A stretch of DNA of 63,548 nucleotides, the filler included, from Asterionella formosa (lineage: Eukaryota): the NCBI GenBank assembly GCA_002256025.1. It is 6 parts of 6 records of this genome, joined end to end, with 100 filler letters (N's around TTAATTAATTAA, not from the genome) between each part and the next. Parts side by side here need not be neighbours in the genome. Positions count along the whole stretch, not along the records: positions 1 to 19,790 come from NKIB01003535.1; 5 more parts are not named here. One strand, given 5' to 3'. The notes beneath the pieces were generated by a model. That model was not told where the DNA came from. It did no database searches and saw only the letters and a list, made by a program, of their open reading frames with translations. Of the stretch, positions 1 to 48,287 are shown piece after piece; positions within the stretch are counted from its first letter, which is position 1, and the number at the start of each line of letters is the position of its first letter. The position numbers were made by a program, and so were the translations under genes.

Positions 1-552
1 AAGTGTTATACATTTATAAAATTCAAAGGCGCTCTCGATATGGAACATCTGATATGGTTGAGATGATCATACTTGCATATACATAATTCGAAAATACTCA
101 ATGCACTATATGTCCATAGTTTTCCATGACTACGTGTACCGCAATTGTTTCTGAAATTTGTTTGCATCGATATTTTCTACGTCTGTTGGAACTATTTATT
201 TAGACCATTCAATTGGTGTAAGTCATAACCGCAAGGGTTTTGGTAGCAAATTGTTTAAGCACCTTTTTTGGGCGGGAGCTCTTCATGGCCTGTGTACCGG
301 TACATCATATGACAATAACAATATATCATATATATATACAGAGTACCAGTAGCAGGTAGTAAGTAAATGAATTTAAGATCATTGAACTTTAAGGAAGACA
401 ACGACAACAGTTATCAAGTAGTACAATGTCTTCAAGAAACCATAAAGAGGTTCATGGAAACAAGCGACATGTGGCAAATACTACCGGTATGAAACAAAGA
501 AGCAAGTTCCAAAATGAGTTAACAAAGAAAAAGCGAATAGGTAAATCAACAA

Positions 553-2283
553 AAGAAAACACGAGAATGAACGTGATGGCTGGTTGTTGAGGATACCGGT
601 TTGTGATAGGCATCAATCCATGTCACAAATCATATTATAGTGATGTACATATCAACGCATCCGTATACTTAGATCCTATCCACCATAGTATAATACTATC
701 ATATTAACTGTTGACTTTAACAGTATACATTAAACGACAAACATATATATTAATTAACATACTTTATGACTACTTGATTTATTTTCTATGATGTCTTGGT
801 AATACTTGCGTACATATTTTATCGTACTTTATTGTCATTGTACTATTTTAACATAATCATATTTTGATCAAAATTTTATCATAAACATTTTATAAAATCA
901 TCATAGCTTTATGATCAGTGTATCATAGCTATGTGATGTACTTTATTCAATAATACGTATCATACTTTGGTGATGTATGAATCGATGTAACCCTATCATG
1001 ATATCACATTATCATCTTAGTATCAATCATGATGAGATGATTGGGAAGCAACTGTATTCTGCATCGTGCTATGGGGTATATTATTATATCACGCAATTTA
1101 GTAGCTACGTCACTCCGCCTGTAATGTACAAAAGTCGACAGTGCACATACTCACACGCTAATCAGGTTTGAGGCAACGGACAGTGGTTCGAACGAGCGAA
1201 TGATGATACCACGAGTACCAATTGTTCCAGCAAAAGAACTTGTCTCTCTATTGATGAGGATGACACGGACACCGACTTTTCCAGGAGCAAACAACAATGA
1301 AGAGACCCACTTGTCGCTCTATTGATGTCAACAAAGATGCAGACAAGTTCAACAGTGAATACAAGAACAAAATACCAATGAAAACAAGTCGACAGTGTGT
1401 GTACGCACACGCCAAGCAGGTTTGAGGCAATGGACAGTTCCAACAGGCAAGCAAATGACAATACAGATATCAAATTTTTCCTACGAGCAAACAACAATGA
1501 AAAGAGCCACTTGCTTTCGCTCTCTTGATGGTATCAAAGATGCGGACAAGTTCAATAGTTAATTCAAGTACAGTATGCCAAATGTAGAAACGAGCGAGCG
1601 ATATGAAAATGAAATGCATTTTAATCAGAATCATTTTATAACTATAGCTATGTGGACAGTAGTCTGTTACGCACATTTTCGTATCTCCTTCTATGCTGAA
1701 TCGAAATAGTAGATGTAGTATCATGTGAGAATTGAAAATGTCAACGAGAACAAGTAGAATGTGTTTGTTTTCGGGTTAATTGGCGAAATTGTCAAGCTGA
1801 AGTCGACGAAACGGATTTACTTTGCTTGTGCGCTGTGTGCGGAACCATTACGAGTTCGAATGATTTCTTCTCTCCTGTAAACCCTTATTTGAATGATTAT
1901 GAACAAAGGTTCACTGCACATGACGATTACTCGAAGATATAATGATCACTTGACCAACAAATTGAAGACGTTATCGCAAACATTCATTCCGCTTGTCATT
2001 GCTAGTATTTCGTTGCTGTTGCAAAAATCGGAGTGATGACGGATGGAAATGACGAGCCAAATTACATTACTTGAACTGGTACATTATCCTACCAAGAAAT
2101 TCGAATACAGGAATCAAATAGAAACAATACATATAATAATTAAATATATGTAGTCAAAAGGGTTACTTTTTAAATTAAAAATGCATTTATCAAAATTATT
2201 AGATGATATAACGAAATATTATGATCAGATGATCACAATCCTATGATGCATAATGGAAATATGATAGTTTTTATTTGCAGACG
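553..2283 (+). repeat. Dispersed ~1.7-kb repeat family, copy A (probable abundant mobile-element module)
   Basis: Collinear similarity to 30260-32026 and 49778-51493, from AATGAAC.TGATGGCTGGTTGTTGAGGATACCGGT to TTTGCAGACG. Left edge ragged, right edge sharp. Confidence 0.9.
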
Positions 2284-2690
2284 CTTCATAAGGTCTTCTC
2301 CACCATGTTGTAGGATCCGGCCAATTCCTCTTCAGTCTTAAATGTACTCAACCAATCCATTGTGATCAAGAAGAAAAGAGGGTTGGGCTTGTGAACTCGA
2401 TCTGTACTAATATGATCCATCAAATTCAATGCAGAAAATATCTTCATGGAACTCTGTGGACTGAGACCAAAGAATGAACAAAATCGTCAAAGTTTCGTTG
2501 CATCGCAAGTTCTTTTATTCCTATTCTCATGAAATCCTGCATGAAGAAGGCCCAGATCAAGAAAATCGGAAGCAGAGAGAGGGAGCATGGTGTGTAGAAG
2601 GAAAGGACAGGCGATTTTGTTTCATTCAAATTGTTCATGGAATCACTGATGCATTATGGGTTTGTTTGAAAATATATTTTGTTTGACTCT
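2281..2690 (+). pseudogene. Degenerate 2OG-Fe(II) dioxygenase-like (PhyH-like) fragment
   Basis: One frame reads FLFSLKCTQPIHCDQ (HxD at 2358-2366). Further on, GQAILFHSN then VHG across a frameshift (2605-2641). Several stops. Confidence 0.4.
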
Positions 2691-3269
2691 ATTATATCAC
2701 TGTTACCTGTCTTGTGTTTTGCCAGTATAATATGATTATATTATGACAGGTACTGGTAGTAGGTGGGGTGGGTGTGATGGCAGTGAAGGGTTGAAATGGT
2801 GACATCACACACTAAGCAAAATTGCGACTTTAAGCAAAACGGTCCTTCTTTGAGCAAAATCAATGGAAGCAAATGGCAGAATAAGCAAAACAGATTGGTC
2901 TCAATATTTTAGACTTCAAATAATATTAATTTAAATATAATTCGGAACAACAAGCTGGCCGGTTGATTAATCAAACGGCCATCAAAGAGTTACACATGTA
3001 TCAACTTGCAAGTGGAATCACCATATTGCCGGGACGACGACGTACGTAGCACAATAAGCAAAATTACCGTAACTTTTGGTATCAGGGTACCAGGTACCCT
3101 GGTACCAGTAGTAGACAACGCTTGTTGGTATACGAGGTTCTTCACGGACGATAAGACACGACAAAGATGATGATAAAAAAAGACTGCATAAAATAGTACT
3201 AATTCTATAATAACAACAACTTGAAAGGATTTGTCAGATTCTTAATTACTGTCGTCGATTTCTTCGAAG

Positions 3270-5715
3270 ATGACGACAGCCAAGTCAAGCGACCTAAAGC
3301 ACAAAGAAATGGCAGACGCTGCTGTGAAGCGTCACATTTCAGTTGTATTGCCTGAAAAGGGGGTAAGAAATGAATGAAAACAGTCCGCTGCCTGCCATGT
3401 TATACTTTCGTAGCTTCCCTGAATCTTGATCCATGCCAATAGTATGGGACTGGAATCTGACTTGATTGTACTGCTTTCACCCACCCTCCTTTGCTTCAAC
3501 CTGCAAAATCGTTTCTATTTTTCTGCCTAATTATCGCAGCTGTTGATGCCATTTTTCCAAGCACAACACAAGCTGACTCACGAGCAAAGAAGAAAATGGC
3601 CAAGAACTCGTTTTTGAGATTTTAGGGCCTCACTCACATTTTTCTTTTTTGCACAGAACGGAAGCGTGGAATATAAGAGGCAAGTGAACAACGCCACTGC
3701 GACGAGGTTGCGTTCATTGGCGACACAAATGTCCTACCGATTAGATGAAGGATATGGTGCATGCATGTATCAGATTGGAGTCGAGGACGACGGTTGCCAT
3801 TCTCTCTTGGATTACCCTGTTGTTGCTGAGTCCGCCAAGATTATCGAATGCATTGCTCGCAGTCTTAATGCTGTGGTAATTGAACGTACAATGATTCAGA
3901 ACGAAGTAGTCAGCAAGGATGGTAACCAAGAAGCGACAAACATGACCCCTGTTATCGTAAGCGAACCTCCAATATTCGGCAATGGGCAGGATCATATGGT
4001 TTTCGACGGAGACCATCAGCATTATGAAGACGAGAAAGAAGAGAAGATGCCTGATGACGACAGATTACCAAGTCAATTGAAAACCGAATCTGGAGTAATC
4101 ACGCGTTGTGAACTGAAGATTCAGCGAGTTGAGACGCACATGTTGGACTTGTCACGTCTGTCCTTTGGCAAGCTAGCAGATGGTGGTAAGCTTACTCTTG
4201 ACAAAACGATGACTGAAAATATTCCGGCCATAATATTAGCGAACAGTGCAAAGGCGCAAGCGAAGAACTCGATTGCAGAGACGTTGTCGTCACGAAACAT
4301 TCGAGTAGCTGTGGTCGGCAATGTTGATGCGGGGAAGTCGACGTTAATTGGTACGCTCACAACATCGTGCCTTGATGATGGACGTGGAAGAAGCCGAACA
4401 TCAATCATGAAGCATCGTCACGAGATTGAAAGTGGACGAACATCAACGGCATCAACACATCTCATGGGTTTTCGCGCAACAGGCGAACCTATTGCGGGAA
4501 AAGATCAGATTCGCACAAACAAGCGTAAAACCGAAGATGAAGTGGCTCGTGAGTCTTACCGCATCATCACATTGATGGATCTTGCCGGACATGAGAAATA
4601 CCTCAAAACAACAATTCATGGAGTGTCATCTGGGATGGCCGACTACGCTCTGATTCTTGTCAACAGTCGCCATCCTCCAACGCACATGACGCAACATCAC
4701 TTGAACCTTTGTTGCAGCTTTGGTATTCATGTTGTGGTAGTCTTTACCAAGGTAGATGGATGTCCTGAGCATGCTTTCAAAGAATCGAAGGAAGAGGTAT
4801 CGAAATTATTGCTTGCTCGCGATGTTGGAAAAAGGCCTTTTGCTGTCAGAAATGAAGGAGATATAGCAACGTGTATTGGAAAAATGAATTCTCTTGCCCC
4901 AATGATTGAGACGTCCTGCGTAACAGGTGAAGGTATTGACCTGTTACAGAAGTTGCTCTTTGCCATTCCAAAGCGACGCCGTCATGAGAACAAAGTTAAC
5001 CGTCCATTTGAGTTTTTGGTGGAGGATATTTTCAATGTTCCTGGAGTGGGAGGTGTAGTCTCTGGGTTTGTGAATGCCGGAGAGCTTACTGTTGGTTCCA
5101 ACTGTAATATTTACGTCGGACCCACAGATGACGGCTCTTTCATGAAGACTGTTGCCAAGTCTGCTCACATAGCTCGACTCAATACGACCCATGTAACCTC
5201 CGGTCAGTCTGCGTGTCTGGCGTTTTCTCTAAACAAGGATTTGCGGAAGAAATTGCGGCGTGGTATGGTCGTTGTTACTGAGAATCCAACTGCAACACGT
5301 GAATTTGATGCTGAGATTTGTGTGCTCAAGGGGGAAGGGACAACCATTCGAAGATCTTACCAGGCATATGTACACATTCTCAACGTTCGTCAGAGTGCAT
5401 TTGCTCGAAACATCGAGATTATACATCACAATACCATAGGATTGCCTGCTAGTAACACTGGAACTGCGGACGGGGACGATTATGGGATTGTTTTGCGTCC
5501 TGGATGCAGAGCAAAGGTTCGCTTTGAGTTTGCCAAGAGGCCGGTAAGTTGATTTCTTACTTATGTTGTGACCTTTTTTCTTGGAACTGACAATCTCGGT
5601 TTCCCTGATGATCCAATAGGAGTATATTCGCCCTGGTATGCGCATGCTTTTTCGCGATGGGCGAGTTCGTGGTGTTGGTATCATAACTGGTGTACCAACT
5701 GCTCAACCATTTTAG
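3270..5715 (+). CDS. GTP-binding protein of the GTPBP1/GTPBP2 family (translational GTPase); exons 3270-3362, 3657-5543, 5620-5715
   Basis: G1 GNVDAGKST, RHRHEIESGRTS, G3 DLAGHEKYLKTT, G4 TKVD, and a C-terminal EYIRPGMRMLFRDGRVRGVG. Both GT-AG introns keep the frame. The start could instead be ATG 3309. Confidence 0.92.
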
Positions 5716-8456
5716 GCCAAACAGTTGGGTGCAATGGGCCGGGAAAGCTACTCTGGATTGTGGTTTGATGCAATGCTTAGTCTCTAGAGGCAACTGTATG
5801 TTGAAGCACGACGTAAAAGCACTTGGCAATACCATTCACAGGGTTCAGTTCACCTTTGACAGGCTCATGGTTTCCTTAGTGCACTAATTCGGGGGGGGGG
5901 ATGCATAGGAAATGTTTTACGATTCATGGTTTTTACTGGGTTGGTAGGGCAACAAGCCCACTATGTGATTACCCAGGAAGGCAATAAGAAAAAGCTTATG
6001 CTGATCTACTGTAAGGTCTGAGGAATGCAGAGAAATGGTAAAGGCTAGTGTGAAGAGTATCTTGAGAATGTGGTAGAATAGCAACAAACTTGCAATATTT
6101 ATCCACCTTTGTGGCCAGTTGTCAATGTCTGTCATTGATAAATGGAATTGGATGTCAAAATGCACTGACTTATTTCATCCATAGTTAAATACAGCATAGC
6201 CATATGTATGTTTTACAATATCTGGTATTTACTTTGTACTAGGACTATCGAAAAAGCAAGTCTCTCCTGCTACTAAGTAAGCCAATTCCACAAGCTCTAT
6301 TATGCTGATGTAGGGCATCATAGCCAAATCATTCCTCAGTGTTCCTGGTTTGAAACAAGTACATAATAAACCAGTAGACTAGAGTAGACTAAGCTGAGTG
6401 GGCTGTGAATGTATTGCCCAATTCAGAGCAGGATGATGTACAGCATGACCAGAACTTTCTATTTTTGATTACAGCAGCTGTTGAATCAAAAGCTCGAAGT
6501 CAGTGTGATGTGTATGCATCAAGGCATCTCCATGAGATCAGGTTCAATGATGAATATTGTATGGTTCTTGGAAATTTCATTAGCCTTCTTCTGGAAGAAC
6601 TTTGAACTTTCATTGCAGTTGACACTGTAAAATCAAATGCTAGCTCTGACTCCAGAAGTACAAACCAGTGCATGTATCCACAGTGGTAGATCCTAAGTAC
6701 TATTGGCCTTCACTGGCTTGTCAGAGGCCACTTCATTGACATTCATCATATCTATTGTGACTCTAAGTACAAGGAAGGTCTAGCGGCGACTAAATGCTGA
6801 TTTCAATCCAGTTTCGAGCGTGCAACGCATAAATTGGCTTGATTTCAGATATATATGTACCCCTATAATTTGCAATTTTCATATATTGGACCTCTATAAA
6901 ATTGGCATGTAATTTTTGTTGATACTCCAAGTACTACATAATCCCATTTCAGCAGTTCTGCAATTCAATTTACGTTCAAGCAAATGGAAGATGTTTTGTT
7001 GATACCTTTTCAGCGGCTTGTTCATGAAATGCTGAAGCTTTTCAGCAATTGGACAACGATTAATTTGGTATGATTAATCAGCAAATTTCCAACTGACAAA
7101 GGAGTCACTTTTAAATTGTCAATGGAGTCCTATTGACATTTTCGGCTTCCAACAACCAGGAAACAGACGAGTATCAAACAAAATATTCCAGTGGTACTAC
7201 TAGATAATGGCTGTCACCACTTAAAAAGTTATAACAATTTGTATTTTTGTACCACTTGGTAGGCTACCAGGGAGGGCAGGGTGCGTACTGGTTGCTGACT
7301 GCTTCAAATGGGCAAGTTCATTAACGTTCATCCCTTGTGGCTGATGAAAACTATTTTTTCTGATCAATAACCCAAGTGTTGTGACATCAAACATATCGGA
7401 GCATTTCTTTTCCCTGGAGAAGAGGCAAATATTTTATGAGGAGCTGATAAAATATGATGTGCTATTTATGTGTTGTGCCCAGTCCATTTGGCAGTCCAAT
7501 TCATATCAGCTACTTTCAGCAATTCCTTAACCTTTTCAGCAACTACTGGACAGTTTGCTGATTGCTGTTCAGTACTGCTTGAGAAAATCTAAAATAGTTT
7601 CATCAACTGGAAGAGGATGATTTGATTTGGCAAGATCAATCAGCAAATCATCATTTTTTAATAAGAATAATGGCTTTGTAAATTACTTAAGCAAGTTTGA
7701 AATTAAAAGGTGGTCTATCTCACGTGGCAGGCATCATGACATAAATCATCTGGAAGGAGTCAAAATTGAAAAGGTGCACATCACATTTGACACCAGATGT
7801 TACAAGGTTGTATAATGTGAACATATATATATATATTCACATAGTATGAAGGGGGAGTGGCTTCATGTTTAGCATGCCTTCTGAGGCTGCAGGTTAGATT
7901 ACTGCACTCTCTGCCTGCCTTGTTGATGTAGTCCCAAGGGTTCTTGGGGGTGAGGCTGACAACACGCAGGTCTAAGGCCTTCTGGGCCCGACTTCACAAC
8001 CTCCACAATTGTCAAGTCCTTCAACAATGTGGCATATTTAAAATTTAAAAAATATTTTCTTCGTGTATCAGTATATACTGCAGTCATCATAGAAGCAAGC
8101 AACCCAGAAAACATACTCAAAGCGCGCCACGGGCGACGAAGAAGAAGGTTTATATTTTTGCATGTCGAATAATTTTGTGATGAAGAACGCCAAGCAAGTT
8201 TTTCGTAGGTCGTGGCGGACGGCGGAAATTATATATAGTCAGCGGAAAATCAGTTCTGCATGTGTTTTGCTGTTAGTAGTACCTGGTACCGCTATTGCAA
8301 TTCACCTATTTGTCGCCCACACAAATTGAAGCAAACGTCAGTCACGAACCCAGCGTATGCATTGCAGAGGGTTGTCAAGCCTTTTTGGAATTTCCTGCCT
8401 CTCCAAAGGAACAGCTCTCACCGCCAACGACAGATTCGCAAGCATTTGGCCTACGT

Positions 8457-9317
8457 ATGAAGATTCTCTCGCTTATACTTTCAACTTACGTTGTCACTCA
8501 GCATGTGCAAGCACTATGCCTGACAATGGTGGCATCAGGGTCATCGCGAGGGCCGTTAGGGAACATGGATATTCCTCAACCCGTTAGTGTGACATCTGGT
8601 CTCATCTCGCAATTAGCAATTCTTGCACTGAAGCGAAGGCTAGCTAAACAAGCTGGGGTCAAGTGTGACGTAACAGTTAGCTCGTCGGATTTATTATTGA
8701 GAGGACGAGTAGGACCAGTTACAGTGAAGGGAAGGGGTTGGCATTCATCCCTTGGACTCTCGTGTCGAGCAATAGAGGCAACTGTTGAAACATGTGAACT
8801 AGATTCTGGTCGCATTCTGCAGTCGCAAAAGCTAGTTCTAAACTCACCTGCCAAAGGCAAAGCTATGATTGCCCTGAATGAAGCAGATTTTGGCAATTTC
8901 GTGACGCATCCCATGATGAAACCTCCTGGCCTGCCAGGTAATAATTCGACAAGAGAGGGCTTCAAATTCATAAGTGGAGAGGTAAAAATTGATACTTCAA
9001 ATGGGGGTGCTGTAATCTTCTTTGGAAGTTACTTAGACGAATTATGGAGACTAAGACTCACAAGAGGTGGAGAAGGAAAGCGTGCTATCATCGAGGTTTC
9101 GCCAGAAACGTTAAATACTGGACTAGACTATGATGTGGCGAGCAAAGATCTTACAGAGCTCATCTCTGCATTCTTCAATGAAATGGTATTCGAATTGGAT
9201 GGTACTTTCTTGACTTTCAATGACATGATGGTAACGGCGAAAGGCGACTCCCCAAGTCTAATGCTGGCCTTGTCTATTGTAGTGCACAAGTTTCCGAGCC
9301 CAGGCCTAAATTTTTGA
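8457..9317 (+). CDS. Signal-peptide-bearing protein, DUF2993/LmeA-like, possibly plastid-targeted
   Basis: Intact ORF with likely start MKILSLILSTYVVTQHVQA (hydrophobic leader). SSSDLLLRGRVGPVTVKGRGW resembles DUF2993. Family call is tentative. Confidence 0.6.
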   Translation: MKILSLILSTYVVTQHVQALCLTMVASGSSRGPLGNMDIPQPVSVTSGLISQLAILALKRRLAKQAGVKCDVTVSSSDLLLRGRVGPVTVKGRGWHSSLGLSCRAIEATVETCELDSGRILQSQKLVLNSPAKGKAMIALNEADFGNFVTHPMMKPPGLPGNNSTREGFKFISGEVKIDTSNGGAVIFFGSYLDELWRLRLTRGGEGKRAIIEVSPETLNTGLDYDVASKDLTELISAFFNEMVFELDGTFLTFNDMMVTAKGDSPSLMLALSIVVHKFPSPGLNF

Positions 9318-9413
9318 ACCAGCTACTGCATTTCGTAATAACATAATGAATGAAGGTATGAACACATATTCAAGGCTTTATTTTTGCTTGGTCGTCCTTC
9401 ACTGTAAACTTGT

Positions 9414-10391
9414 TTACGGTTTGCTTCCAAGTTTGTGTCCATGTCCCCGTTTTCTTGCCTTCAATGCGTCACTGACAGTATCCTTGGCTTTTCGAGCGTC
9501 AGGATCGAACCGTTGTACCAAGAAATGAGGAGCACCTAGCCAGTCTTCTCCTCCCATCTTGGGCCAGATGAACTTGTGGAAGTGGTAAAAGTGCCCCGAC
9601 AGGATACCCAAAACATGAGGAATGGCAGCCATGGGGCTTCCGGCCTGTAACACGTCGCTTGCCATTAGTCCATATGGCAAAGCCCAGTACGGAACAGTAA
9701 ATATGATCCACTTGACCTGCTGATTAGGCATGGCGCGGCTCAAGACGTGAAGCATTGCAGTGATCATCGAAGGGGCAAAGAATGGCTGACCGAGTAACGA
9801 TGATAGTATAGAGAGTAGAACGATTTGAACCATCAGAAATACGAGGTGCTGAGCGGTCCCATATGCTCTCTCCAATGAAGAACCGTATTCAAATAAATAG
9901 TATGCACTCATAAGCCAACCAATGCTTGGTGGACCAAAGAAAGTAGCTGAAGTGAATGGTCTCCAAAGCTCAAGTCCATAAATAACTCGCACTGGGTCCA
10001 ACGCAAGCAATCCTTGTGTGAGTTCTTCACCCAGCACCATGCCTAGCAAGGTTGCGATAGCAACAAGTGTAATATAAATTCTAGTCAGTGGAAGAATCTG
10101 CCTGTACTTTTGTAGTGTATCAGATAGTGCTGACTTCTTTTTTTCCTCTTTGGCTGTCGCTTGGACCGCTTTCTTGCCTGTAACAGTTCTAGATGAGCTC
10201 AAGCTTGCAGTTTTACCGCCCTGTTTTTTTCGTTTGGACGCTCCTCCTCGAATCTCCAGAGTCTCAGCAATTGGTTTTTTTTCGGTCAACCTCCCATGTC
10301 GTTGAATTGGGGGGAAGCTTGTTGCAACCGAACGACTCGACACCTCTCCGAGTGTCACCAAGAACAACGTTAAAACAGTAACTGTCTTCAT
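9414..10391 (-). CDS. sDer1: Derlin (Der1-like) with N-terminal presequence, probably the symbiont-derived SELMA component
   Basis: 325 aa. Signal peptide, basic transit-like region with IRGG, then Der1 motifs LPLTRIY, ELWRPFTSATFFG, YGSSLE and GILSGHFYHF. Confidence 0.8.
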   Translation of the reverse strand: MKTVTVLTLFLVTLGEVSSRSVATSFPPIQRHGRLTEKKPIAETLEIRGGASKRKKQGGKTASLSSSRTVTGKKAVQATAKEEKKKSALSDTLQKYRQILPLTRIYITLVAIATLLGMVLGEELTQGLLALDPVRVIYGLELWRPFTSATFFGPPSIGWLMSAYYLFEYGSSLERAYGTAQHLVFLMVQIVLLSILSSLLGQPFFAPSMITAMLHVLSRAMPNQQVKWIIFTVPYWALPYGLMASDVLQAGSPMAAIPHVLGILSGHFYHFHKFIWPKMGGEDWLGAPHFLVQRFDPDARKAKDTVSDALKARKRGHGHKLGSKP

Positions 10392-11879
10392 TTCCTTTAT
10401 AGTTCAATGCAAGTATGTGCGACGCCTCAGTAACAGCTTATCTCTCAGCAAAGGACACAGTCGACAACAGTAAAAGATTGAGAAAGTGGAGAAAGCCTTT
10501 TAAACTTTTACTCAAACCAGAAGATTGCGCGTTTATTTGACGTCCCACCAAATGATTCATACCAGCGCCGGTTGCTGCTGCGTAATATATATGAGGACAG
10601 GCAGAATTGAAGATGAGCTCCCCCAAACACGTGGAAGTTGGTATTTTCCCGCCAAAACGATCACCAGCATCCGCCTCATTCATTTTCCTACCTGGTACCC
10701 CTGGTACCTGGGTACATACTAAATAGAATCTCTATGTGCCACCACTCCTAGAGCAAAATATAGTACAGTTTTTTTGGCGTAGCCTCAACCACAAGGATCA
10801 GAAGGACTGCGGAAACCCAAGAAACCCCTTGTGCGTCTGTACTTATACCTTTGCCTGCTATAGGTGCTTACTTCAAGCACCATCCAGCATCCTTCCCATC
10901 CTAACTCACTCATCACACTCTGCCACTGCCATCAAAAACAAGAAGAAGCAATCCTCCTATCAGGAACCCTCAATGCCTGCCAATGCCTGGAAAGCATGAC
11001 AAATGCCAGAGGGGAAATGCCAACAGCTGCTCTGACCCTGCTCTGTGCACCCATCACTGTGTTATTTCTTATTGCTCCTCCCCACCTACATAGCTACCTT
11101 TGCTGATTGTACTGACATCCTAGTATTGCAAATATAGATGAAACCAAAATATTTTGGATATGGTGGGCAGACTCATGCAAGCTGATAAAGGTGCAATTCC
11201 ATCAGTTTTTGCGCCAATGGCAGATATTATTGGGTGTTTCTAAATCTGACAAGAAACTTGCTCTATAGTAATTTTCAAAGGAGTACTTGTTGATACCAGG
11301 AACCAGAGAGAGTTCAACAATCCACAGTATTCATATCCCAAGGAAATGGTTTACTTTTGCCTGAAAAAATGTGGGCCCATAGCTACAGTGGCTACCTAAT
11401 ATAGTTTCAGGATGATGCACCTCCCAGCCTAGTTTCAATCCCATTCATCATACTTTGAGAACCTGTTCTTCGTCTTCCCTTTTTGCTGATGCAAATCTTC
11501 TCCTGATTGATGTGAAACATCAATCTCATTAGCTAGTTTCTTGACATGAGAAAGCTACATTTGATTCATCGGATGACAAGTCTACAATTCTCGTGACTCA
11601 TAATAGCCATTGATACTGACCAGTACTACCAGGTACAGTACCGGTATCTTACATTCTTGAAACAGATCATGACGTCATCATGAGATTTGCTACCTAGAAC
11701 GGAGTACTGGTAGAAAGTTATCCGTATATACCGTCGTAAGATCCATTATGATCTTTGATTTCAGTTCACACTGATCATCCACCCAGCAACGTTTTCCTCG
11801 CGACATCCTGCATCGAAGCTATGTAGGCAAAATAATATTTGCATTGATCCCATTTCCCTAGGCCAGTCCTATCTCTATC

Positions 11880-12799
11880 ATGTTCCGAATTGCCACTCTC
11901 ATCTTGTTGGTCGCTGGAGCGTCCTCATTTTCTCCATCATCTTCCTTCGTCCGTCGTGGAGGATTGGCATCGGTCAACTCGGAATCAAGTCTCTGCATGA
12001 AAACGATTGCTGTCTTTGGAGCTTCAGGGCTCACAGCGTCCGAGTGCGTCTACCAGGCCCTTGCCAATGGTGACAATGTTGTTGGCTTGACTCGTAATCC
12101 CTCCAACTTGGTCATCCCCAAGGGATCCGGTGGTGCCAAGGCCGGACAGGCATTGAGTGATCCAAAATTGACGATGATTGCTGGCGACGTTACCAAGATG
12201 GCTGATGTACAGAAGGTGTTTGCAGCAGGTAGCATTGACGGTGTCGTTGTGGCTCTGGGTGGGAAAACCAGTGATGTCGGAGATACTATGCTTACTGTTG
12301 GAACGAACAATGTCATCCAGGCTATGAAGGATAACGATGTCAAGCGAGTGGCTGTCGTCACTTCTATTGGTGTAGGTGACTCGGAGAACCAGGCTCCTTT
12401 CTTTTTCAAGGTTCTCATGTGGACAGGTTAGTTGTGTCATCTCGTTATCGATTGAGAAAGTTTCCTACCTCGTCTTACCGTTTCACTCTCCCCAACTTAG
12501 CCATGAAGAAGATATTCGCTGATAAGAACAATCAAGAAGCAGCAGTTGTAAAGAGTGGCTTGGAATACTGCGTTGTCCGTCCTGGTGGGTTGACTGTTGA
12601 CCCTCCTACTGGAATCATCAACGTTATTGAAGGAGAGGCTGGTTCGATCGCTCGGGCAGACGTGGCTCAGTTTTGTCTTGACGCGATCACAGTTGAGGAC
12701 TTTCCTTACATTGGCAAGACTCCTTGTATCAGCTCTGTCGGGGGAACATCTTGGGTGAAGGACCGATCTAAGGCTGCCCGAGGGGAGATGGAGACCTGA
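11880..12799 (+). CDS. Plastid-targeted NAD(P)-binding flavin reductase/BLVRB-like protein; exons 11880-12426, 12501-12799
   Basis: Bipartite leader ...GASS-FSP (ASAFAP-like), Rossmann motif VFGASGLTA, VVTSIGVGDS, VRPGGL and SIARADVA. Intron 12427-12500 is GT-AG and joins the frames (WT-A-MKK). Confidence 0.9.
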
Positions 12800-12936
12800 G
12801 TCCTTGGTGAAGGTTGGAAGGCCTAGAATCCTTTCAGAACATCAAGATAGCTATAGTATGGAAAAGCCAGAAATTCTTAAGTTGCCTGCTAAGTGGTCAT
12901 CGAAAACATGATGTGCCTATAATAACACTGAATACT

Positions 12937-13505
12937 CTATTGATAGTACGCTTGAGGATGTGCTTGCCCAGTAGCTTCAGGTGACAGCGAACTCAGCAAC
13001 GTTTGACACAGAGGATGCAGGCATTCCTTCAGCAGCGGGATTCCAGTCGATCTGATGGCTCCAATGTTCGCATTTGGGCTTGCCAAGATGGTAACAACCT
13101 GATGCAAGAGAAATGGGCATGGGTGAGACGTGGGTTACATATTCCAGCAGAGACAGAGTCAGATAGGATGCGGGGTCAAGTCTGCTGGGGCAGAATAGTG
13201 CTCACCACTGGTGACAAGTATACGTGAAGGAGCGTCACTTGGTCATACATGGCCGTAACTACTTGAATTTCCTTGCCCAAATTCAACAACGGAAAGTGCT
13301 TCGATGCAGGAGCCCACGTGGTCTCAAGTGAGCTTAGAACCTCTTCATGCCATTCCACATTGCCTGCATATACCCGTCCCAACGGAACGCCTTCCAAAGT
13401 ACTCAGCAGGATGGCATTGACGCCGGCACCGCAGCTATTGATCCGCTCTACCAGTTCTTGCAGCGAGGATTGGAGAGCACTGGGAAGAAGGTTCGGGGAA
13501 GACAT
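12937..13505 (-). CDS. LAMTOR3: Ragulator complex subunit LAMTOR3/MP1-like (roadblock fold); exons 13505-13206, 13098-12937
   Basis: 153-aa spliced product with AILLSTLEGVPL, LNLGK..VVTAMYD, PVVVTILASPNANIG. Canonical GT-AG intron. Confidence 0.8.
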
Positions 13506-14114
13506 GGATGGGGAAATATTGAGGTAAAAGGAAGACGAGTTATGACGAAGAAGAAGGGGTATGTCTATTCTGGAATCTGTATTCTGTATCATGGTCTACT
13601 TACAACAAATCATAGACCAGTTTAGCCATGTAGCTGCAGAGTACCAGGTACCTATCATATCATTTTTGTTGAGGTTTTCGTATTTATACCAGGTAGGAAG
13701 GAGTATACCAGCAAGTTGCGGTAATTTTGCTGAAACTAAAGAATTAGCTCTTTTTATCCCAGATTGCAACTTGCATGTATCAGACAAACGTGCCTGTACC
13801 AGGTACCTGGTAGTTTGTTGTGCAGGGGTGTGACATCCCAGGCTTATAGACGTGAGACGTGTGATGGTCACTTTGTTATTACTGAATATACCGTATACAG
13901 TACATAATAGAAACAAAAAATATGTAAGATTTTAGCAAAATGCAACAGTCAGAAAGAAATAGGAATGTCCATCGCCACCACCTGCACACTTTTTTGTATT
14001 AGTGTTCACTGCTGTGTTGCTGTTGGTGATTTCGCACTTTCTGTCTGATAACCGAGGAGTGTACACTTTAGAGGCAAGAGATAGTATACTGCGACTGTGA
14101 CCAACAGCTTCAGG

Positions 14115-15548
14115 ATGGAAATGGACCCGTTCTTTGCCGTGCCCGACGCGACGAAGGACGAAGGTGAACCTCCATCATCGGCGCCTCCAGCTGCGAATCC
14201 TGCAGCAGTGCGCCAAAAGGCTCCTGATACTCCCAAACATGCTTTAGTGGATAATTCTGCCAACAAGTCTTTTTCACTTGACGAAGCCAATGAAGAAATT
14301 GCTCTTTTGTTGAAGAGTTCAAAGGTATCGCAGAAGGAAGTGAGTGCCATGCAGGGGATGATGCGGGACCACGTAGCTTTGCTGGACAAGGTCTCCAAGC
14401 TCAAGTCTTTGCTAGGAAGGTCTGCCAAGGCGCAACGAGAAGCAAAAATGGATCTAGAAGCGACGCAAAAGAAATTGGAACAAACCCTACGCGAAAACGA
14501 ACTCCTAAATGCCAAGGTTGAGCGTTTGGCAAACAGACCCACACACATGGACCTTCTGGCTGACTTTGAGACGAACTTTGACAGGGCGTTGCTTAGTGTG
14601 GGACAAGCGGGTGGTGAAAATACCGCTGCTTCGTCCGCAATTTCACCGCTACCTGTCCAGAACGACGCAGTGGTGGACTCCATGTTGATGGAAGAATTAG
14701 CTGAGTCACAGACTAGAATTGAACGTCTGGAGAACCTAAATAGTGCCCTCATGCAACGATCCTCGCAGCTGGAACATCAAGCGAAGGCACTTCAGCAGGA
14801 GAAAGATAACTCTCAGCATATGCTTGCAAGAATGACATTAGAACTCAGAATGGCCCAAATGGAGGCTGATCATGCATCCAGGGCTGTTCAAGACAAGATG
14901 GCCAGTCTGGCAGAAATGCAAATGGAGATTGATCTTGTCACCAAAGCGAGCATGGATGCTAATGTACGTGCTAGTAAAGGAGAAGAAGCCGCCAAATCGG
15001 TACAGACTGATCGTGAGATGGTACAGACATTGCAAGCTCAAGTGCAGGCATTACAAGAGTGGGCTTTGGCATCTGCTGAGGCTAAACGCTTGTCACAAGA
15101 TCGGGTGCGATTTTTGGAAAAAAAATTACAAACGATTGAGGGGTCTTCACTGCCAAAGGAACCTATAGGAGAGCGAACACTTTTTACAAAGGCAGGCTCA
15201 CTTGTGATTGGAGCAGGTGATGACGGATTTTCTATTATTGACCTTGCTGCATGTTGCCAAGGCATCACTACAGCTGAGCGTGTTGTCTTGAGATGGAAAT
15301 TTGATCTAACACCAGATACTGCTAGTATTGACTTTAGTATTCTCAAGGGTAAGGCTGACACACCTACTAAACAGTTGAAAGCTGACTCATTGGTTAAAGG
15401 TAGAATTGTCACAGGAGGTGCTGGGGGCGATCAAGAAGCAGCGTTTGTGGTTCAGAATGCATGCACCTTGCTTTGGTCAAACAAGAAGTCGTGGGTGAGA
15501 CCCAAAACCGTCAAATATTTGGTCTTTGTTGTGGCTGTCAAGGACTAG
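14115..15548 (+). CDS. Long coiled-coil protein with C-terminal GOLD domain
   Basis: Heptad-rich E/K/Q/L region. The C-terminus has LRWKF...IDFSI...CTLLWSNKKSWVRPKTVKY, typical of GOLD domains. Confidence 0.75.
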   Translation: MEMDPFFAVPDATKDEGEPPSSAPPAANPAAVRQKAPDTPKHALVDNSANKSFSLDEANEEIALLLKSSKVSQKEVSAMQGMMRDHVALLDKVSKLKSLLGRSAKAQREAKMDLEATQKKLEQTLRENELLNAKVERLANRPTHMDLLADFETNFDRALLSVGQAGGENTAASSAISPLPVQNDAVVDSMLMEELAESQTRIERLENLNSALMQRSSQLEHQAKALQQEKDNSQHMLARMTLELRMAQMEADHASRAVQDKMASLAEMQMEIDLVTKASMDANVRASKGEEAAKSVQTDREMVQTLQAQVQALQEWALASAEAKRLSQDRVRFLEKKLQTIEGSSLPKEPIGERTLFTKAGSLVIGAGDDGFSIIDLAACCQGITTAERVVLRWKFDLTPDTASIDFSILKGKADTPTKQLKADSLVKGRIVTGGAGGDQEAAFVVQNACTLLWSNKKSWVRPKTVKYLVFVVAVKD

Positions 15549-16399
15549 TCATTTCATGTAGCACTTCAATTGCTGCTACAGTAGGCATCGGAAGCAGTGT
15601 ATTTTTATTTTATGTTTTGAAAGATGCAACAAGGATAAAAGGAGTCGTGACAGCTTGTTGATTTTACCCTCTACATACACTATCTGTAGATATTCAGCAG
15701 GAGCATCAAAGTAACCTAATCCTAGCATTTATGATACTTGGAGTCAACAAAAAAAACATTTTTAGATATTTCAGTTCTCATCAGCCACAACACATATTAT
15801 GTGACTCTGTATTCCTCTCCTTGAGTCAGCAGAACAATGATAAGGATATTGACCTTACAAATAAATTTACATGACAAGCTCGTTTATTGTTCCATGCTAA
15901 ATAAATATGGATAATGGTTGATGATAATCTCAACCACCCATCATCAGTGTTTTGAGGCACAACAAAGTCTATTACGGTTTCAGTATGATCACAATAGAGC
16001 TTATAGCTAGAACACAAAGCCTTGTGGAACAATTTTGGAGCATGGGAACTTAATCTTATAAGCATTGCAAATTAATCATGTGCTAGCTTTGGTTAGTGCT
16101 CTCATAGCTCAATATCCCTAGTTTTTAATGGTGCTTCTCAGCATACATAATTAGTAGCAATGACCATTGTTATGTTTAGGAGAGCCTCATTGAACTTTTA
16201 AATAAACATACAAAACAGAACAGTTTAATTGTGTTTCAAACTGATCTGTCTAACTGTCTCTTATGTATTGCATGATAAAGCTGTATACACTTGTACAGCA
16301 CTGCAATGAAATTTCTTCAACAGCATGACCATCATAACCCAGCTCCAAATAGTCTTTAATATATCAAAAAATATATGGATTGTGGCTCCATTCAGTAGA

Positions 16400-18106
16400 T
16401 TAAAAGGTCTCAAAATGTATGTACTTTGGGTCAACTCCCATCTGTAGCAATCCTTCCTCCATGTCGGCACAAAAGGCGCTGGGACCACACATATAAATAT
16501 CTGAATATAAAAAGTCAGGGACAACTTCCTTCACCAAACCTGGAGTCAAACGTCCCTTGGAGTCAAACAATCCATGATCTTCTTCCCTTGGCCTTGAATA
16601 AGCAATATGCCTTGTCAAGTGATTTCCAGCAAGCTGTATCAAACCCTGTATTTCACTTTGAAATGCGTGGTATTCCCCATTTTGGGTACCATGTAGCCAT
16701 ACTGCCCTCCGAATCTTTTTCTTTGTGTCCACATATTCATGAAGCATAGAAAGGATGGGAGTTACCCCAACACCTGCACTGAGTAAGACCAAAGTACGAT
16801 TGTTCACGTTGTCTAAGATGAAGTCTCCTGTAGGTTTTTGTGCTTGAATGGTATCCCCAACTTTGATGTTGTCATGTAAGTAGGACGACACTTCGCCAAA
16901 TGGCTCGCGCTTGACTGAAATTCGATATTCCCCCCATGAAGATCCACCTGAAAGTGAGTAGCTTCGAAGCAAAGTCTTCTCGTCACTCATCGCCATTTGT
17001 ATGGGTAAATGCTGACCAGGTATGAACTTCCAAAGGACTGGATCTTGTACATCAGCTGCTTTAAGATGAAAGGAAGTTATCTCGGTAGATTCTTTGGTCT
17101 TGTAGACAACTTGAAGCTTGCGTGTATGGGAGGAATCAATGTCTACATTCCAGCGAATGGGAAGTGCTGAATCTTCAACTTGGTTGACCTTTGAAATTGT
17201 GAACTCAATTAGTCGTTGAGATCCTGGGTAGCAATTGTTAGAAACTGCTCTGTCGAACACAATTTTGGCAATACCTGTCAACTGCAACAGGCCACCAGAT
17301 TCAAAGTTTGGAATCGTGATCCCCATTCGAGGATCCAAGTGAATATTTCCCAAGGTATTGAACATGCCATTACCTGAGAAGTCAGGAAGAAGGAGAGTCG
17401 ATTTATTCTCTACATGCACCCACCCGGGAGTGCCCCCTCGATGTGAAGCATCATTCCCATATCGAGCGTCTTCGCCTTCACCCCGGTAGCCAGTCGCCAC
17501 AAAGATTGTGTCGGCGGCTCGGATTTTTTCTATTTGCGCTGGCGTGAGTTCCGTGGACATGTTCATTGAAGCTGCGTTTGCCGCATGCCGCTCCTGGTTT
17601 ACCGTAGACCGCCACCATTGACGCGGTTGAATGTATTGTGGACAGTTTCCAAACGACTGTTCAACCATGAACTCTATACATTTTTTCTGTGAATCGCCCG
17701 ATATGATTCGACCATTCACCCTGTTGCGGCGTTTTGTGGCGAACTCAATGGCGAGAAGACCAACGTCGTCACCTACCTGAAATGCATGTTCGAGGGCATC
17801 TCCTGGAGCAGGCTGTCCCTGCACGGAAAGTCGCGTTGAAGAGGGACTCTTGATGAATTTGTTGCTGCCGTCATAAAGGTCGGTAAGGATCGTCGACCAC
17901 ATGTTCCCATCTCGATCTCGAGCCGCCGCCACCAAAAAGGGTTGAGCGCAGAAGAATTCTCGATGTTGATCAGGCATGAAGGGGCGAATAAATTTGGGGG
18001 CGTATTCTGCAACTGCCTCTACTGTGCCTAAGAGTTTTTGCACGTGATCTTCTCCAGGATGAAAAGGATTGTTGCCAGGCCAGTAAGGATATTGAAAGGA
18101 AATCAT
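16400..18106 (-). CDS. Pyridoxamine 5'-phosphate oxidase-like FMN-binding domains fused to an FAD/NAD(P)-binding ferredoxin-reductase-type domain
   Basis: Intronless 568 aa. PFHPGE, FMPDQHREFF, RRNRVNG, FGNCPQYIQ, DASHRGG and GNGMFNTLGN, followed by RSYSLS, SAGVGVTP, YMCGP and terminal IHFETF. Confidence 0.88.
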   Translation of the reverse strand: MISFQYPYWPGNNPFHPGEDHVQKLLGTVEAVAEYAPKFIRPFMPDQHREFFCAQPFLVAAARDRDGNMWSTILTDLYDGSNKFIKSPSSTRLSVQGQPAPGDALEHAFQVGDDVGLLAIEFATKRRNRVNGRIISGDSQKKCIEFMVEQSFGNCPQYIQPRQWWRSTVNQERHAANAASMNMSTELTPAQIEKIRAADTIFVATGYRGEGEDARYGNDASHRGGTPGWVHVENKSTLLLPDFSGNGMFNTLGNIHLDPRMGITIPNFESGGLLQLTGIAKIVFDRAVSNNCYPGSQRLIEFTISKVNQVEDSALPIRWNVDIDSSHTRKLQVVYKTKESTEITSFHLKAADVQDPVLWKFIPGQHLPIQMAMSDEKTLLRSYSLSGGSSWGEYRISVKREPFGEVSSYLHDNIKVGDTIQAQKPTGDFILDNVNNRTLVLLSAGVGVTPILSMLHEYVDTKKKIRRAVWLHGTQNGEYHAFQSEIQGLIQLAGNHLTRHIAYSRPREEDHGLFDSKGRLTPGLVKEVVPDFLYSDIYMCGPSAFCADMEEGLLQMGVDPKYIHFETF

Positions 18107-19419
18107 CTTTTGTTTATCGAGTCGAAGACTTGAAATTGTGAGGATTACAGATGATGCTTACTTGGTGCTGGAGGTGATCTATCGGCTTCCTTCATATTAC
18201 CCGGGTTCATCGAGAAGAACAATGTCGAAGTGCATTTATTTATTTCGGTAATACTGGACGTCGTTTCTTAGCAAAGAAATAGATGCGGAACATTTGTAAA
18301 GCGAAGCCACAAAAAAGCGTTTTGGAACGAACAGTACCGGTTTGTGCATGTATGTTGAGTTGACAAGTGTACCAGGTACTCCGAAAACTTCCCGAGCATT
18401 CTTTTTGACATCGCTCCTGCCGCCATGACGAACTCATCATCATCATGAATATCATTCAATCGCACATGTTATTCTATATATATCGAACGTGTAGAATAAG
18501 AAAATTTTAAAGTATACTTTTATTGAAACTCGAATCTATGGAGTACGTGGAGTCGCACTGGGGCCAAGAACTTGGGCCCCAGGGAATGATGAGTGAGGGT
18601 AAGTCCATTGTGAGACTTGTAGAGGTTTCAGACAGGGAAACGACTGTAAAGATGGCAAGCACGAGCAAGGCACCCACATAGCTAGGGCTCATAGAGGGGT
18701 CAAAAGTTTGTGTAGTAGTCTAGGACAGCCAGTATGGGAAGAATAGAAGGCAAAGAGGAAGGCAAATTAAGAAGTTTAGAAAGCAAATATGGAAACTGCA
18801 TGGCCATTCAGGAGAATTTTTTTCAAATGAGGGTCCAGAAGTAGAAGAATCAATGAAAGTGGTAGCCTCATGAAGACATATGATGAGAGCATGAGAAGGG
18901 GGCCGGTTTTGGGGCAAGATGCTGCTGACAATTTATATGGTGGCAAATTGTATTGCCATTGCTTTTGCTGCATTTTACTTGAGAATCATCCTGGCAGGCA
19001 ATTGTCAGTCTGAAATGAAGAGTGGAGGAGCAAGGTGAGAGCTTGTGGAATGGTGTAGTGGGCTGAAAGGAGTGAGGATCATGTTATTGCATTTGGGTGG
19101 TTGATGGTGCCAGGGTAACAGTAGTGTCCAGGGAATTGGCGGAGGTGTCATTGGAGTAGAGGCATGAGACGAGCGCTGTTTGTTGTTGTGGACAGAAGCG
19201 GCAAGCGGGGATGTGTGAAGGGGCGGGGGTCAGGAGGAGTGGTGATCAGAGGTTCAGAGGGGCGAGCGAGATAATAGGGAAATAAAAATGTTGGGGAAAT
19301 GCCAGATGTTCAGTATGGCTGCAACCTAGCTACTAAGTGTCAGAAAGTGTCTCGATTACCCTGTGGCTTTCCCCCAGCCAAGATGAGGCCCTCTCAAGAA
19401 ATTCCTCATGCCATCTAAG

Positions 19420-19790
19420 ACATGTACTGGTCCTAATGATGGTGAGATACCACTTCTACCTAAAGATGAGGGCTCCGGTTTAATGATTAGTTCCCTGGCT
19501 GATCTGTAAAGAACATGGACTGATTATTAGGGAACTAAACATTAATCTTCTAACTCAAGTCAATCATTCTATACTACATTCTAAGTATGCTGAGGAAGAA
19601 GCTGCAATAGAAGTCAATGGAAGTGCTCTAAAACTAGATCTTAAGAAATCTCTTTTTCTAGTTTACATTGACTAGTACTATGGAGAGAGTAAGGAGGGAT
19701 ACTGGAATTATGCACACATGGTGTGTCAATTCGAAGATTTTGTAGATATCCTTAAGGTACTACACCCCACTTTCCATTTTGTTTTCCTCT
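19420..19790 (+). mobile_element. Degenerate DDE transposase fragment (IS630/Tc1-like), cut by the contig end
   Basis: TGPNDGEIPLLPKDEGSGLMIS ... YGESKEGYWNYAHMVCQFEDFVDILKVLHPTFHFVFL, with intervening stops. Confidence 0.65.
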
Positions 19791-19890
19791 NNNNNNNNNN
19801 NNNNNNNNNNNNNNNNNNNNNNNNNNNNNNNNNNTTAATTAATTAANNNNNNNNNNNNNNNNNNNNNNNNNNNNNNNNNNNNNNNNNNNN
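19791..19890. other. Artificial contig spacer (44N-TTAATTAATTAA-44N); also at 39680-39779, 59568-59667, 60895-60994, 62222-62321
   Basis: Five identical 100-nt spacers whose core gives stops in all six frames. Contig lengths decrease monotonically. Confidence 0.98.
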
Positions 19891-23487: not shown

Positions 23488-23697
23488 ACTCGGTTCTGAT
23501 GTTATATATGAAAATGTAAAAAGCTCTGTAGGTCTTAATGTATTGTATCTACACAGCGTAATATATTATATTTAGTGCCTGATGATTCATTTCATTGTAG
23601 CTAGCAACACCTGATTTTAAGATCATCAAACTTTAAGGAAGACAACGACAACAGTTATCTAGTAGTACAATGTCTTCAAAAAACCACAAAGAGATTC

Positions 23698-25371
23698 ATG
23701 GAAACAAGCGACACACATGTGGCAAATACGGCCGGTATGGAACAAAGCAGCAAGTACCAAAATAAGTTAACAAAGAAAAAGCGAATAGGCAATTATCCAA
23801 AGGAACCCAGGGAGTTAGTTGGCGGGGGTACTATGGAGACACCATCAGCTACTAGTACAAAGGATCCTGTAATTGGTACTGAAAGCGATGATGACGTTTC
23901 TTTTTCAGTTGTTGATAAAAGCAAAATGGCTCCTGTCGATGATACCATTAATAACTCCCAGATGCAGATGGACAACATATTACCATATCATAAATTTTCA
24001 AATCGCACTGACCAACAAGTACATGACAAACTGAGGGAAAAACAATTTGCACTTGCCAAAAGATATTATCAATTGGTCAATGGACTCAATCACTACAAAG
24101 GTCATAATTCGGTTCAAAACTCGTCCATACGAGGTTATCAAGACTCTTCAATTTCAGCAGCCTTATCAGAACGTCGTTCCCGCTTAGCTAAAATTGAACC
24201 ATCAATTGTAACAAAGGTTGTGAGTTTTACTTGCTTTCAAGACCAAGAAGTTTTGCTGTGAACATGTAAGTTTGATGTTATAGTTCGTGAATTGCAGGTA
24301 CTGTAAAACAGAATATCAAAATAATGTGCTTTTTTCTGGTCCGAAAAGAGAATCAAACATCCCGCCCTATCTGGTCCAAGTAGTATGAAAGGCATTTCCA
24401 ATCACAAACAGGATTGGTTTGCCGAATGCTGCCTATCTTGGCTATACATTGTGAAACCGGAGTTAGGCAAAGAATTGGAGAGTGACCAAGAGCTTGCCGA
24501 TTTCATATGGAATGGTTCTGATGCACTACTTCCAATGAATCAGACCATTGAACGTACCAACATTGCACCTTTAGATTACATCAAATCAACATTTGGTGGC
24601 ATGTGCATTAAAAAGTTGAGAGAATGTCAGAATGTATTGAATAATCAATTTAAAGGAATCTTAGGTAAGTTCTTATGTTTTGAGTTGGTGATTATATACT
24701 TATCAAATATGTTTGTATTTAAAACTTCTTATCAAATATGTTTGAATTTAAAATGCTAACATAATTCATGACAAACCAGCTGGTCTAACAGAACATAACT
24801 TCCAGACTATGGATAGCTATTGATGACTTTATTAGGTGGGCGTTCACGCTTTATCGTTTTGCGTAGTCAAAGGACATTGACAGGGGAAGCCACGGATACC
24901 CTGTCTGGCGTGATGTTCTTGCTCCGGTGTATTTTATAGGCAGGACAAGCCGTGGAGAACCATTTTTTTCAGGAGACAAATCTGGTTTGACCAAGCCAAA
25001 TTTCAACTCAGTCTTCGGGCACAGTGTGAATTGCAATCACGTTTTGTTGGTTCGCTGATCAATGCCAGTACAGAAGCCTTTTGCTTCTTGGTGCTGAAAG
25101 GAAAATTCCGATTGCTTATAAGGAAATCTACACTGGACTTTCACAAAAGAATCGATCTGAATATGGAAGGAATCTTAGTAGTGGAATTGCTACTTCCACA
25201 ATAAATATCATCTACCCACACTCATACTTCTCATTTCCCAATGTAAGTGAAGAGGATATGCATCAATATGTTGAACCACTTCAACCAAATGTTCCTGAGA
25301 AGAATATTGATTACAATGACCGCATCAATCAAAAGGATATCGATGACCACATTGATTTTGAATGGATCTAA
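23698..25371 (+). pseudogene. Degenerate intron-containing accessory ORF (ORF2-type) of a CMC/Plavaka-like element
   Basis: Three ORF blocks separated by AT-rich GT..AG segments. STEAFLLL resembles DEAYALLVL at ~56000. The 5' part is repeated at 371-541. Confidence 0.4.
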
Positions 25372-48140: not shown

Positions 48141-48287
48141 ACTGCCTGACATAAGTATAGTATAAGTATAACTGGTATACTGCTGGATGCCAAAAAATGG
48201 CTCGCAGTTAACTGCAGTATAAAATCACCAACCTATGCTGTCCATTGTATAATCTATTGTACCACCTGGTACCCTGGTAGTACCAAT

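Follow-up and report, generated by a model that had tools for sequence, protein, structure and literature searches.

The window analysed here is a stretch of 63,548 nucleotides (nt) from Asterionella formosa (assembly GCA_002256025.1) and contains three copies, A, B and C, of a repeat of about 1.7 kb, hereafter the cassette. It consists of six joined pieces (1-19790 from record NKIB01003535.1, 19891-39679, 39780-59567 and three of 1227 nt) separated by spacers of N runs around TTAATTAATTAA at 19791-19890, 39680-39779, 59568-59667, 60895-60994 and 62222-62321, so that distances between copies in different pieces are meaningless. Each long piece (~19.8 kb) carries one cassette copy. The neighbouring genes include one for an EF-Tu-type GTPase at 3618-5552, whose best named relatives are from pennate and other diatoms (71-74% identity), as well as genes for a Der1 protein, an NAD/FAD oxidoreductase, a gametolysin-like protein and leucine-rich repeat (LRR) proteins identified with Pfam. 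The features of the cassette and of a related terminus are as follows.

548-2283, plus strand: copy A, full length (alignment of A, B and C, blastn against all pieces, 5′ block, terminus motif at 2270-2283).
30256-32026, plus strand: copy B, which lacks ~330 nt shortly after its 5′ end and contains an internal tandem duplication of 339 bp (30986-31324, 31325-31663).
49774-51493, plus strand: copy C, full length (alignment, blastn, 5′ block, terminus motif).
1123-1581, plus strand: internal sub-repeats of ~254 nt (1123-1184 resembling 1377-1438, 1277-1378 resembling 1476-1581; blastn).
2043-2078, plus strand: ATG-led mini-frame of 12 codons (MEMTSQITLLEL), with equivalents at 31786-31821 and 51256-51291.
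2079-2280, plus strand: GT...AG segment of 202 nt, the proposed intron, with equivalents at 31822-32023 and 51292-51490.
2261-2283, plus strand: conserved 3′-terminal motif of ~23 nt (...TTTTTATTTGCAGACG), common to a second repeat family.
22143-22209, plus strand: 3′ end of this second family, sharing only the terminal ~23 nt with the cassette (79% identity over 66 nt to positions 53-118 of metagenome locus L004).

A first-pass annotation of this DNA had described the three copies as a constant module of leader exon and intron to which interchangeable 3′ exons are coupled, or alternatively as an element whose sharp right edge is simply its terminus. Its positions for the mini-frame, the GT (2079, 31822, 51292), the AG (2280, 32023, 51490) and the common ACG are correct, as are the numbers of open codons following the ACG (10 in A, 221 in B and 86 in C), and the copies lie one per long piece as described, with their starts now refined to within a few bases of 548, 30256 and 49774. 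The left ends, which had been called ragged, share the same 5′-terminal block, including the 24-mer ATGGCTGGTTGTTGAGGATACCGG at 576 (576-599), 30286 and 49806; copy B had seemed shorter through its internal deletion. The three copies can be aligned over ~1.7 kb, and the alignment collapses right after the common ...TTTGCAGACG. Identity is even (85-95%) across 900-2283, with no visible extra constraint on the proposed exon or intron.

Sequences from outside the window comprised seven metagenome contigs, identified in a metagenome scan that used a conserved 21-mer of the cassette's 3′ region as probe (the loci L002, L004, L006 and L007 are named below), and the contigs of four public runs. X1, which may stem from the source sample, and X5 are DNA runs from different samples, X13 is a polyA RNA run from the same sample as X1, and X10 is an RNA run of a different study. 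All four were used as assembled Logan contigs, from which starts, strands and levels cannot be read. From X1, 216,195 contigs were aligned, and contigs of a DNA run were placed on positions 1-6000 of the window. This stretch of DNA occurs in public runs of lake or freshwater metagenomes and in one 'algae metagenome'.

The right end of the cassette is fixed. The three window copies end with TTTGCAG|ACG, after which similarity stops, as had been noted before; the aligned junctions of all seven metagenome loci agree, ending with GCAGAC(G/A) at the same base and then diverging. No similarity was found among the ten downstream flanks, and 54 contigs of a DNA run depart from the reference right after 2283 with a consensus agreement of only 0.39. 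Taken together, the 54 diverging contigs, the seven metagenome ends and the unrelated flanks show that the right boundary is exact across many independent copies. The base flanking the fixed end varies (C, T, G, C, T, T, C, T, G and C in the ten copies). The last two bases are CG in nine of the ten cassette copies and CA in one, while the two ends of the second family read CA and TG. Such variants are those that CpG decay produces, and the terminal CG thus belongs to the element and not to the target sequence. The motif TTTATTTRCAGAYG occurs four times in the window, as compared with 0.19 occurrences expected, and a fourth, related terminus lies at 22196-22209, where the second family retains the same terminal TTTATTT(A/G)CAG. 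The common ~23 nt suggest a signal that is recognised in cis. When both end motifs were used to scan collections of viral and prokaryote genomes, no locus was returned.

The cassette is highly repeated. Summed contig depth in X1 amounts to 2.46-4.89 million over 601-2200 and to 667.6 over the single-copy positions 4401-5400 in the GTPase gene, a ratio of ~3,700-7,300; in X5 the corresponding values are 13,482-60,358 and 37.1, a ratio of ~360-1,600. Summed depth is not a strict copy number and is read as an order of magnitude only; copies in the order of thousands agree with the presence of one copy in each of three 20-kb pieces. Moreover, the cassette contains no open reading frame (ORF) conserved on either strand, the minus-strand ORFs differing between copies. 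The five ORFs of at least 90 amino acids (aa) inside cassette copies contain no Pfam domain, and tRNA and Rfam scans revealed nothing inside the cassette. We assign a probability of roughly 0.85 to the reading in which the cassette is a transposable element, both non-coding and non-autonomous, with copies in the order of thousands in this freshwater pennate diatom, and in which the sharp right edge is its terminus. The earlier view of a high-copy mobile unit with an exact right edge is thereby upheld, and the evidence favours what had been offered only as the alternative.

Derivative copies, as expected of a transposable element, retain the right end. Of the cassette, locus L006 (79-282) comprises just the final ~204 nt and L004 no more than the final ~58 nt. 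In L002, positions 799-931 are joined directly to 2151-2283 by an internal deletion, and many further deletion joints are present in the X1 contigs. In addition, ends follow one another tail-to-head: in L004 an end of the second family is followed by a T and then by the 58-nt cassette end, and in an X1 contig position 2282 is followed by a C and then by position 1657. All seven metagenome contigs terminate inside the cassette. We also observed that the base composition differs strongly between the two sides of L006.

The cassette appears to work like a replicative element anchored at one end, and it fits no named superfamily. Copying anchored at the fixed right end would account for copies that possess this end and lack the far side, and for tail-to-head copies that start one base after the end of another. 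It would likewise account for a second family that has only the last ~23 nt in common with the cassette, these presumably being a cis signal for the mobilising enzyme. As a whole, this explanation, including the mode of spread and the leaning on class, appears somewhat more probable than its competitors combined. No enzyme-encoding partner was found, and we lean only slightly and tentatively towards RNA-mediated copying primed from the 3′ end in the manner of a retroposon; rolling-circle replication or a different DNA-level mechanism, with the element read from the other strand, is nearly as probable.

The sequences flanking the copies are listed below.

365-541, plus strand: fragment of the high-copy repeat Y adjoining the left end of copy A, with six unassigned bases (542-547) in between (blastn, DNA contigs).
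2284-3200, plus strand: moderately repeated DNA, termed W, the right flank of copy A (summed X1 depth of 28,000-166,000 as compared with ~670-850 for single-copy DNA).
32027-32686, plus strand: ORF of the repeated family Z, the right flank of copy B, cut at the junction in comparison with its relatives.

The DNA to the left of copy A (1-547) is also highly repeated but belongs to other families. The Y fragment is 88% identical to 23612-23805, where positions 368-557 recur, and 79 DNA contigs continue past 541 in the same way as the copy at 23806 onward. This second copy of Y continues, to 24261, into an open frame of 218 aa (P0121) without a Pfam match. A third high-copy repeat, X, occupies 1-214 and recurs inverted at 35137-35360; it is interrupted at 364, where 217 X1 DNA contigs depart with a common continuation (agreement 0.85). 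To the right of copy B, homology to the Z family begins at the residue directly after the ACG. In 11 of 16 predicted Z relatives the frame extends 34 residues further upstream, the other five being uninformative because of later start codons, and this upstream part was found nowhere to the left of copy B. Hence, Z was truncated at the junction in B and not given a new first exon. The family (proteins P0122-P0143) has a longest member of 521 aa and many frameshifted or truncated members in metagenome contigs. No Pfam match was obtained for the Z proteins P0123, P0124 and P0139, nor for the ORFs after copy C and after position 22207.

The flanks of the metagenome copies are mixed. In L007, an antisense ORF of 203 aa (57-611, minus strand) is a fragment of a Plavaka-type transposase, and the homology stops at the cassette junction. 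This ORF has 76 relatives, including proteins of 1,000-1,270 residues, and the Plavaka domain is present in three of the five longest ones tested; Plavaka-type (CACTA-like) DNA transposons are therefore likewise present in this diatom or a related one. The flank of L004 contains an antisense ORF of 156 aa that reaches into the junction, and that of L002 is intergenic, with a PNK3P/aldo-keto reductase gene on the same strand ~400 nt downstream. A minus-strand ORF after copy C (51581-52078) has only one weak relative, so that either strand may be the coding one there. Altogether, flanks of this kind would be expected if a transposon were nested in intergenic DNA and in repeats of other families. 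Three tandem units of ~111 nt (49443-49763) lie immediately upstream of copy C, and three units of ~191 nt are located 1.7 kb further upstream (47639-48118).

Several observations weigh against the interpretation as a one-end-anchored transposable element. No target-site duplication was found in the four copies with both ends known (the longest common word is 3-4 nt, as in shuffled sequences). Terminal inverted repeats were not detected, with 7-10 of 30 bases agreeing in register, and comparison of the first 120 nt with the last 120 nt gave subterminal inverted matches of 8-11 nt at best, at differing places in A, B and C. The element ends with GCAGACG, without a poly(A) or simple-repeat tail. 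The last 77-80 nt show no conserved terminal hairpin (z = -0.5 to -1.1 in A, B and C); a 10-bp stem is seen in the L004 variant only and ends more than 20 nt from the terminus. In a consensus fold of the last 134 nt of eight copies we found no compensatory change in 32 predicted pairs, the copies being too alike for a test of structure. An Rfam scan of 1-3300 with E values up to 5 revealed no hammerhead ribozyme and two weak snoRNA-like matches, both outside the element. Pfam searches with 14 and then 66 window ORFs returned ordinary diatom genes only, and no reverse transcriptase, transposase, Rep/helicase or recombinase domain. Depth is roughly even along the element, without the rise towards the 3′ end that frequent 5′ truncation should produce. 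Moreover, the flanks are not contiguous in either of the two testable cases, as Y is not resumed to the right of A and the upstream part of Z is absent to the left of B. This is not predicted by plain insertion, and simple insertion into Y (A) or Z (B) was rejected, the second half of the target being missing on the far side; deletion of target DNA, template switching or exchange among the many copies may lie behind the non-contiguity. Finally, three features sit uneasily with splice signals that are merely incidental: the donor GT is present in all five copies that span it, the shortened L006 starts within one base of the proposed donor, with AT replacing GT, and the reading frame after the ACG is open for longer than expected, as detailed below.

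Measured against known classes, several candidates were rejected. A long terminal repeat (LTR) element or solo LTR lacks support, as the ends AACAA... and ...GACG are not of the TG...CA type and no duplication of 4-6 bp is present. Terminal inverted repeat (TIR) transposons and miniature inverted-repeat transposable elements (MITEs) were discarded in the absence of terminal inverted repeats and target duplication, and a Penelope-like element for lack of a hammerhead in the Rfam scan, even though partial tandems are seen. Introners share with the cassette an end that coincides with a motif resembling a 3′ splice site, and L006 consists of just the GT...AG-like segment plus ACG. An introner was rejected all the same: the left ends of A, B and C show no donor, the full cassette lies mostly in repeats or intergenic DNA rather than in contiguous coding sequence, the RNA contigs retain the GT...AG segment and no spliced RNA was seen, and L006 itself has AT for GT and is antisense to the neighbouring ORFs. 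Also close are composite, non-autonomous retroposons for which a fixed 3′ end is the point of mobilisation, namely the partners of long interspersed nuclear elements (LINEs) of the type of short interspersed nuclear elements (SINEs) and SVA elements. As in these, the cassette is non-coding, ~1.7 kb long and transcribed into polyA RNA, contains internal tandem sub-repeats, and combines a constant, exact 3′ end with 5′-shortened copies (204 nt in L006, 58 nt in L004 and the X1 joint 2282-1657). Its 3′ tail is common to the second family, and this other non-coding fragment is the only further sequence found to carry it. Unlike them, the cassette has neither tail nor target duplication (0/4), no reverse-transcriptase partner was seen, and depth is not skewed towards the 3′ end.

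A non-canonical, Helitron-like rolling-circle element read on the minus strand, with CGTCTGCAAAT... as the initiation (5′) end, is an unlikely but serious competitor. In this case, shortened copies would be early terminations, and foreign sequence at the other end would be captured by read-through. Such an element, like non-autonomous Helitrons, DINE-1 and Helentron-derived HINEs, would leave no target duplication (0/4) and have no inverted ends, and it would possess a single fixed end with some copies lacking the other. Tail-to-head arrays with a 1-nt spacer, central tandem repeats, a very high copy number, termini common to otherwise unlike families and the high-copy repeats that abut the far end of A point in the same direction. 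Size and copy number are also as in non-autonomous Helitrons. According to PMC4067079, canonical Helitrons have a 5′ TC, a 3′ CTRR, an A|T target and a palindrome of 16-20 nt located ~11 nt from the 3′ end, and Helentrons and HINEs have subterminal inverted repeats of 12-15 bp, T-runs at the boundary and a TT target. The minus-strand end of the cassette reads CGTCTGC; the TC start proposed in the first-pass annotation does not hold, as the terminal CG is part of the element. There is no CTRR at the other end, no A|T target (the flanking base varies) and no conserved palindrome ~11 nt from an end, and a canonical Helitron, with which the cassette shares the absence of a duplication, was rejected on these grounds. 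The Helentron/HINE type was likewise rejected, in view of the end GACG, the varying flanks without a TT target, and the lack of subterminal inverted repeats and T-runs. Moreover, the window encodes no Rep/helicase.

A tyrosine-recombinase element (a non-autonomous relative of Cryptons or DIRS elements), or a member of an undescribed class that integrates without target duplication, is highly improbable. The absence of duplication and of inverted ends is in its favour. According to PMC3212892, Cryptons are present in a diatom, and Cryptons lack inverted or long direct terminal repeats and carry direct repeats of 4-6 bp at both termini. A Crypton was nevertheless rejected, as these direct repeats are absent from the cassette (words common to both boundaries do not exceed 3-4 nt) and no recombinase is encoded in the window; in addition, one-sided truncations and tail-to-head arrays would be unexpected.

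In the exon-trap reading that follows from the first-pass annotation, the cassette would be a natural trap for exons or promoters: with its own promoter, a short initial exon and an intron with the last AG as acceptor, it would give rise to spliced chimeras with downstream exons wherever it inserts. The terminal AG is kept in all ten copies and, like the GT (5/5), is in line with this proposal, as is the TTTATTT(A/G)CAG end of the second family. The cassette is located upstream of same-strand ORFs or genes in B, C and L002, as is the related terminus at 22207, which is reminiscent of promoters and first exons derived from transposable elements. In the known cases, chimeric transcripts derived from transposable elements are an occasional by-product of insertion and do not define the edge of the element, and for the cassette no chimeric spliced transcript was observed.

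The element does yield polyA RNA. In X13, depth is highest in the central sub-repeat region (8,509 at 1201-1400, as compared with 106.7 for the single-copy GTPase gene) and amounts to 1,502 at 1401-1600, 841 at 1601-1800, 25 at 1801-2000, 43 in the bin containing the proposed exon (2001-2200) and 185 at 2201-2400, so that the proposed intron is not less covered than the exon. Four X13 and five X10 contigs cover position 2252, and one to three cover 2108-2168; over the whole of 2108-2252 the number varies from one to four in X13 and from two to five in X10. One X13 contig crosses the proposed intron unspliced to 2281 and continues with 146 letters of a different flank, and is thus an unspliced read-out from another copy. 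The predicted junction of CTG to ACG, a joint from 2078 to 2281, was not present among the 15 of 76 joints and the 14 RNA records listed; this negative is weak, because 61 joints are unlisted, the loose ends are listed only in part, and the confirmed GTPase intron is likewise missing from the joint table. The GTPase intron (5543-5618), which is supported by RNA contigs of two runs (two RNA records), is the yardstick for real introns in this organism: it measures 76 nt and reads GTAAGT...AATAG, as compared with 202 nt and GTACAT in the cassette. We also observed that RNA contigs of X13 and X10 leave the reference at the same point, after 1824, and have the following sequence in common. Beyond this position, an expressed variant or source locus carries a different sequence, and it may be the origin of the abundant RNA from 1200-1830.

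The reading frames at the junctions give a mixed picture. At 11 junctions (ten cassette copies and the related terminus at 22207), the frame after the ACG stays open for 10, 221, 86, 37, 3, 77, 49, 22, 20, 29 and 92 codons, which is longer than at random window positions (Mann-Whitney p = 0.0037, n = 11), and six of the 11 frames reach 37 codons, as compared with a share of 0.20 in the background (p = 0.011). No enrichment is seen in frames 1 and 2. Among the identifiable flanks, an ORF begins at the junction in B only. Two of the long frames, those of L004 and L007, run antisense to real or likely ORFs. Given 11 junctions and three tested frames, the excess stays unexplained and is not counted as support.

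Against a general exon trap also speak the coding flanks in antisense orientation (the transposase fragment in L007, and L004), the frames of A and L002, which stop after 10 and 3 codons, the ORF after B, which is truncated rather than capped by a new exon, the AT in place of GT in L006, and the thousands of mostly repeat-nested copies, which cannot all head genes. We therefore regard exon trapping as highly improbable, and a leader exon with interchangeable 3′ exons, which would have been the remarkable part, is not supported by what was testable. Most likely, the mini-frame, the GT and the terminal polypyrimidine-AG are present by coincidence because the end is AT-rich, and are no general device by which downstream exons are spliced on. 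An equally distant prospect is an undescribed kind of transposon in which the ~23-nt terminal signal of at least two families doubles as a working 3′ splice site with an internal donor. If so, copies upstream of same-strand genes would give spliced read-out, which would account for the excess of open frames.

The cassette probably ranks among the main repeat families of this diatom genome; thousands of 1.7-kb copies would total several megabases. It also breaks short-read assemblies, as illustrated by the seven metagenome contigs that all end inside it. Knowledge of its exact ends aids repeat masking and gene calling, since naive gene callers read through the cassette, as the predicted proteins of the Z family show. 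Repeat libraries of diatoms are dominated by LTR elements and 'unknown' repeats. A literature search, based on listings alone and hence no proof of absence, returned no report of such an element in diatoms. In kind, the cassette is ordinary, an unclassified high-copy repeat in a protist genome with a few details unexplained, and an abundant element that has none of the standard class markers would be a useful test case given a full genome.

Apart from the cassette, the third long piece encodes an LRR protein of 758 aa with PT repeats (44040-46316, minus strand), which is built of tandem units of 72 nt and 36 nt. The gene is located between inverted repeats of ~500 nt (39916-40423 and 48280-48787) that are 86-93% complementary and lie ~8 kb apart.

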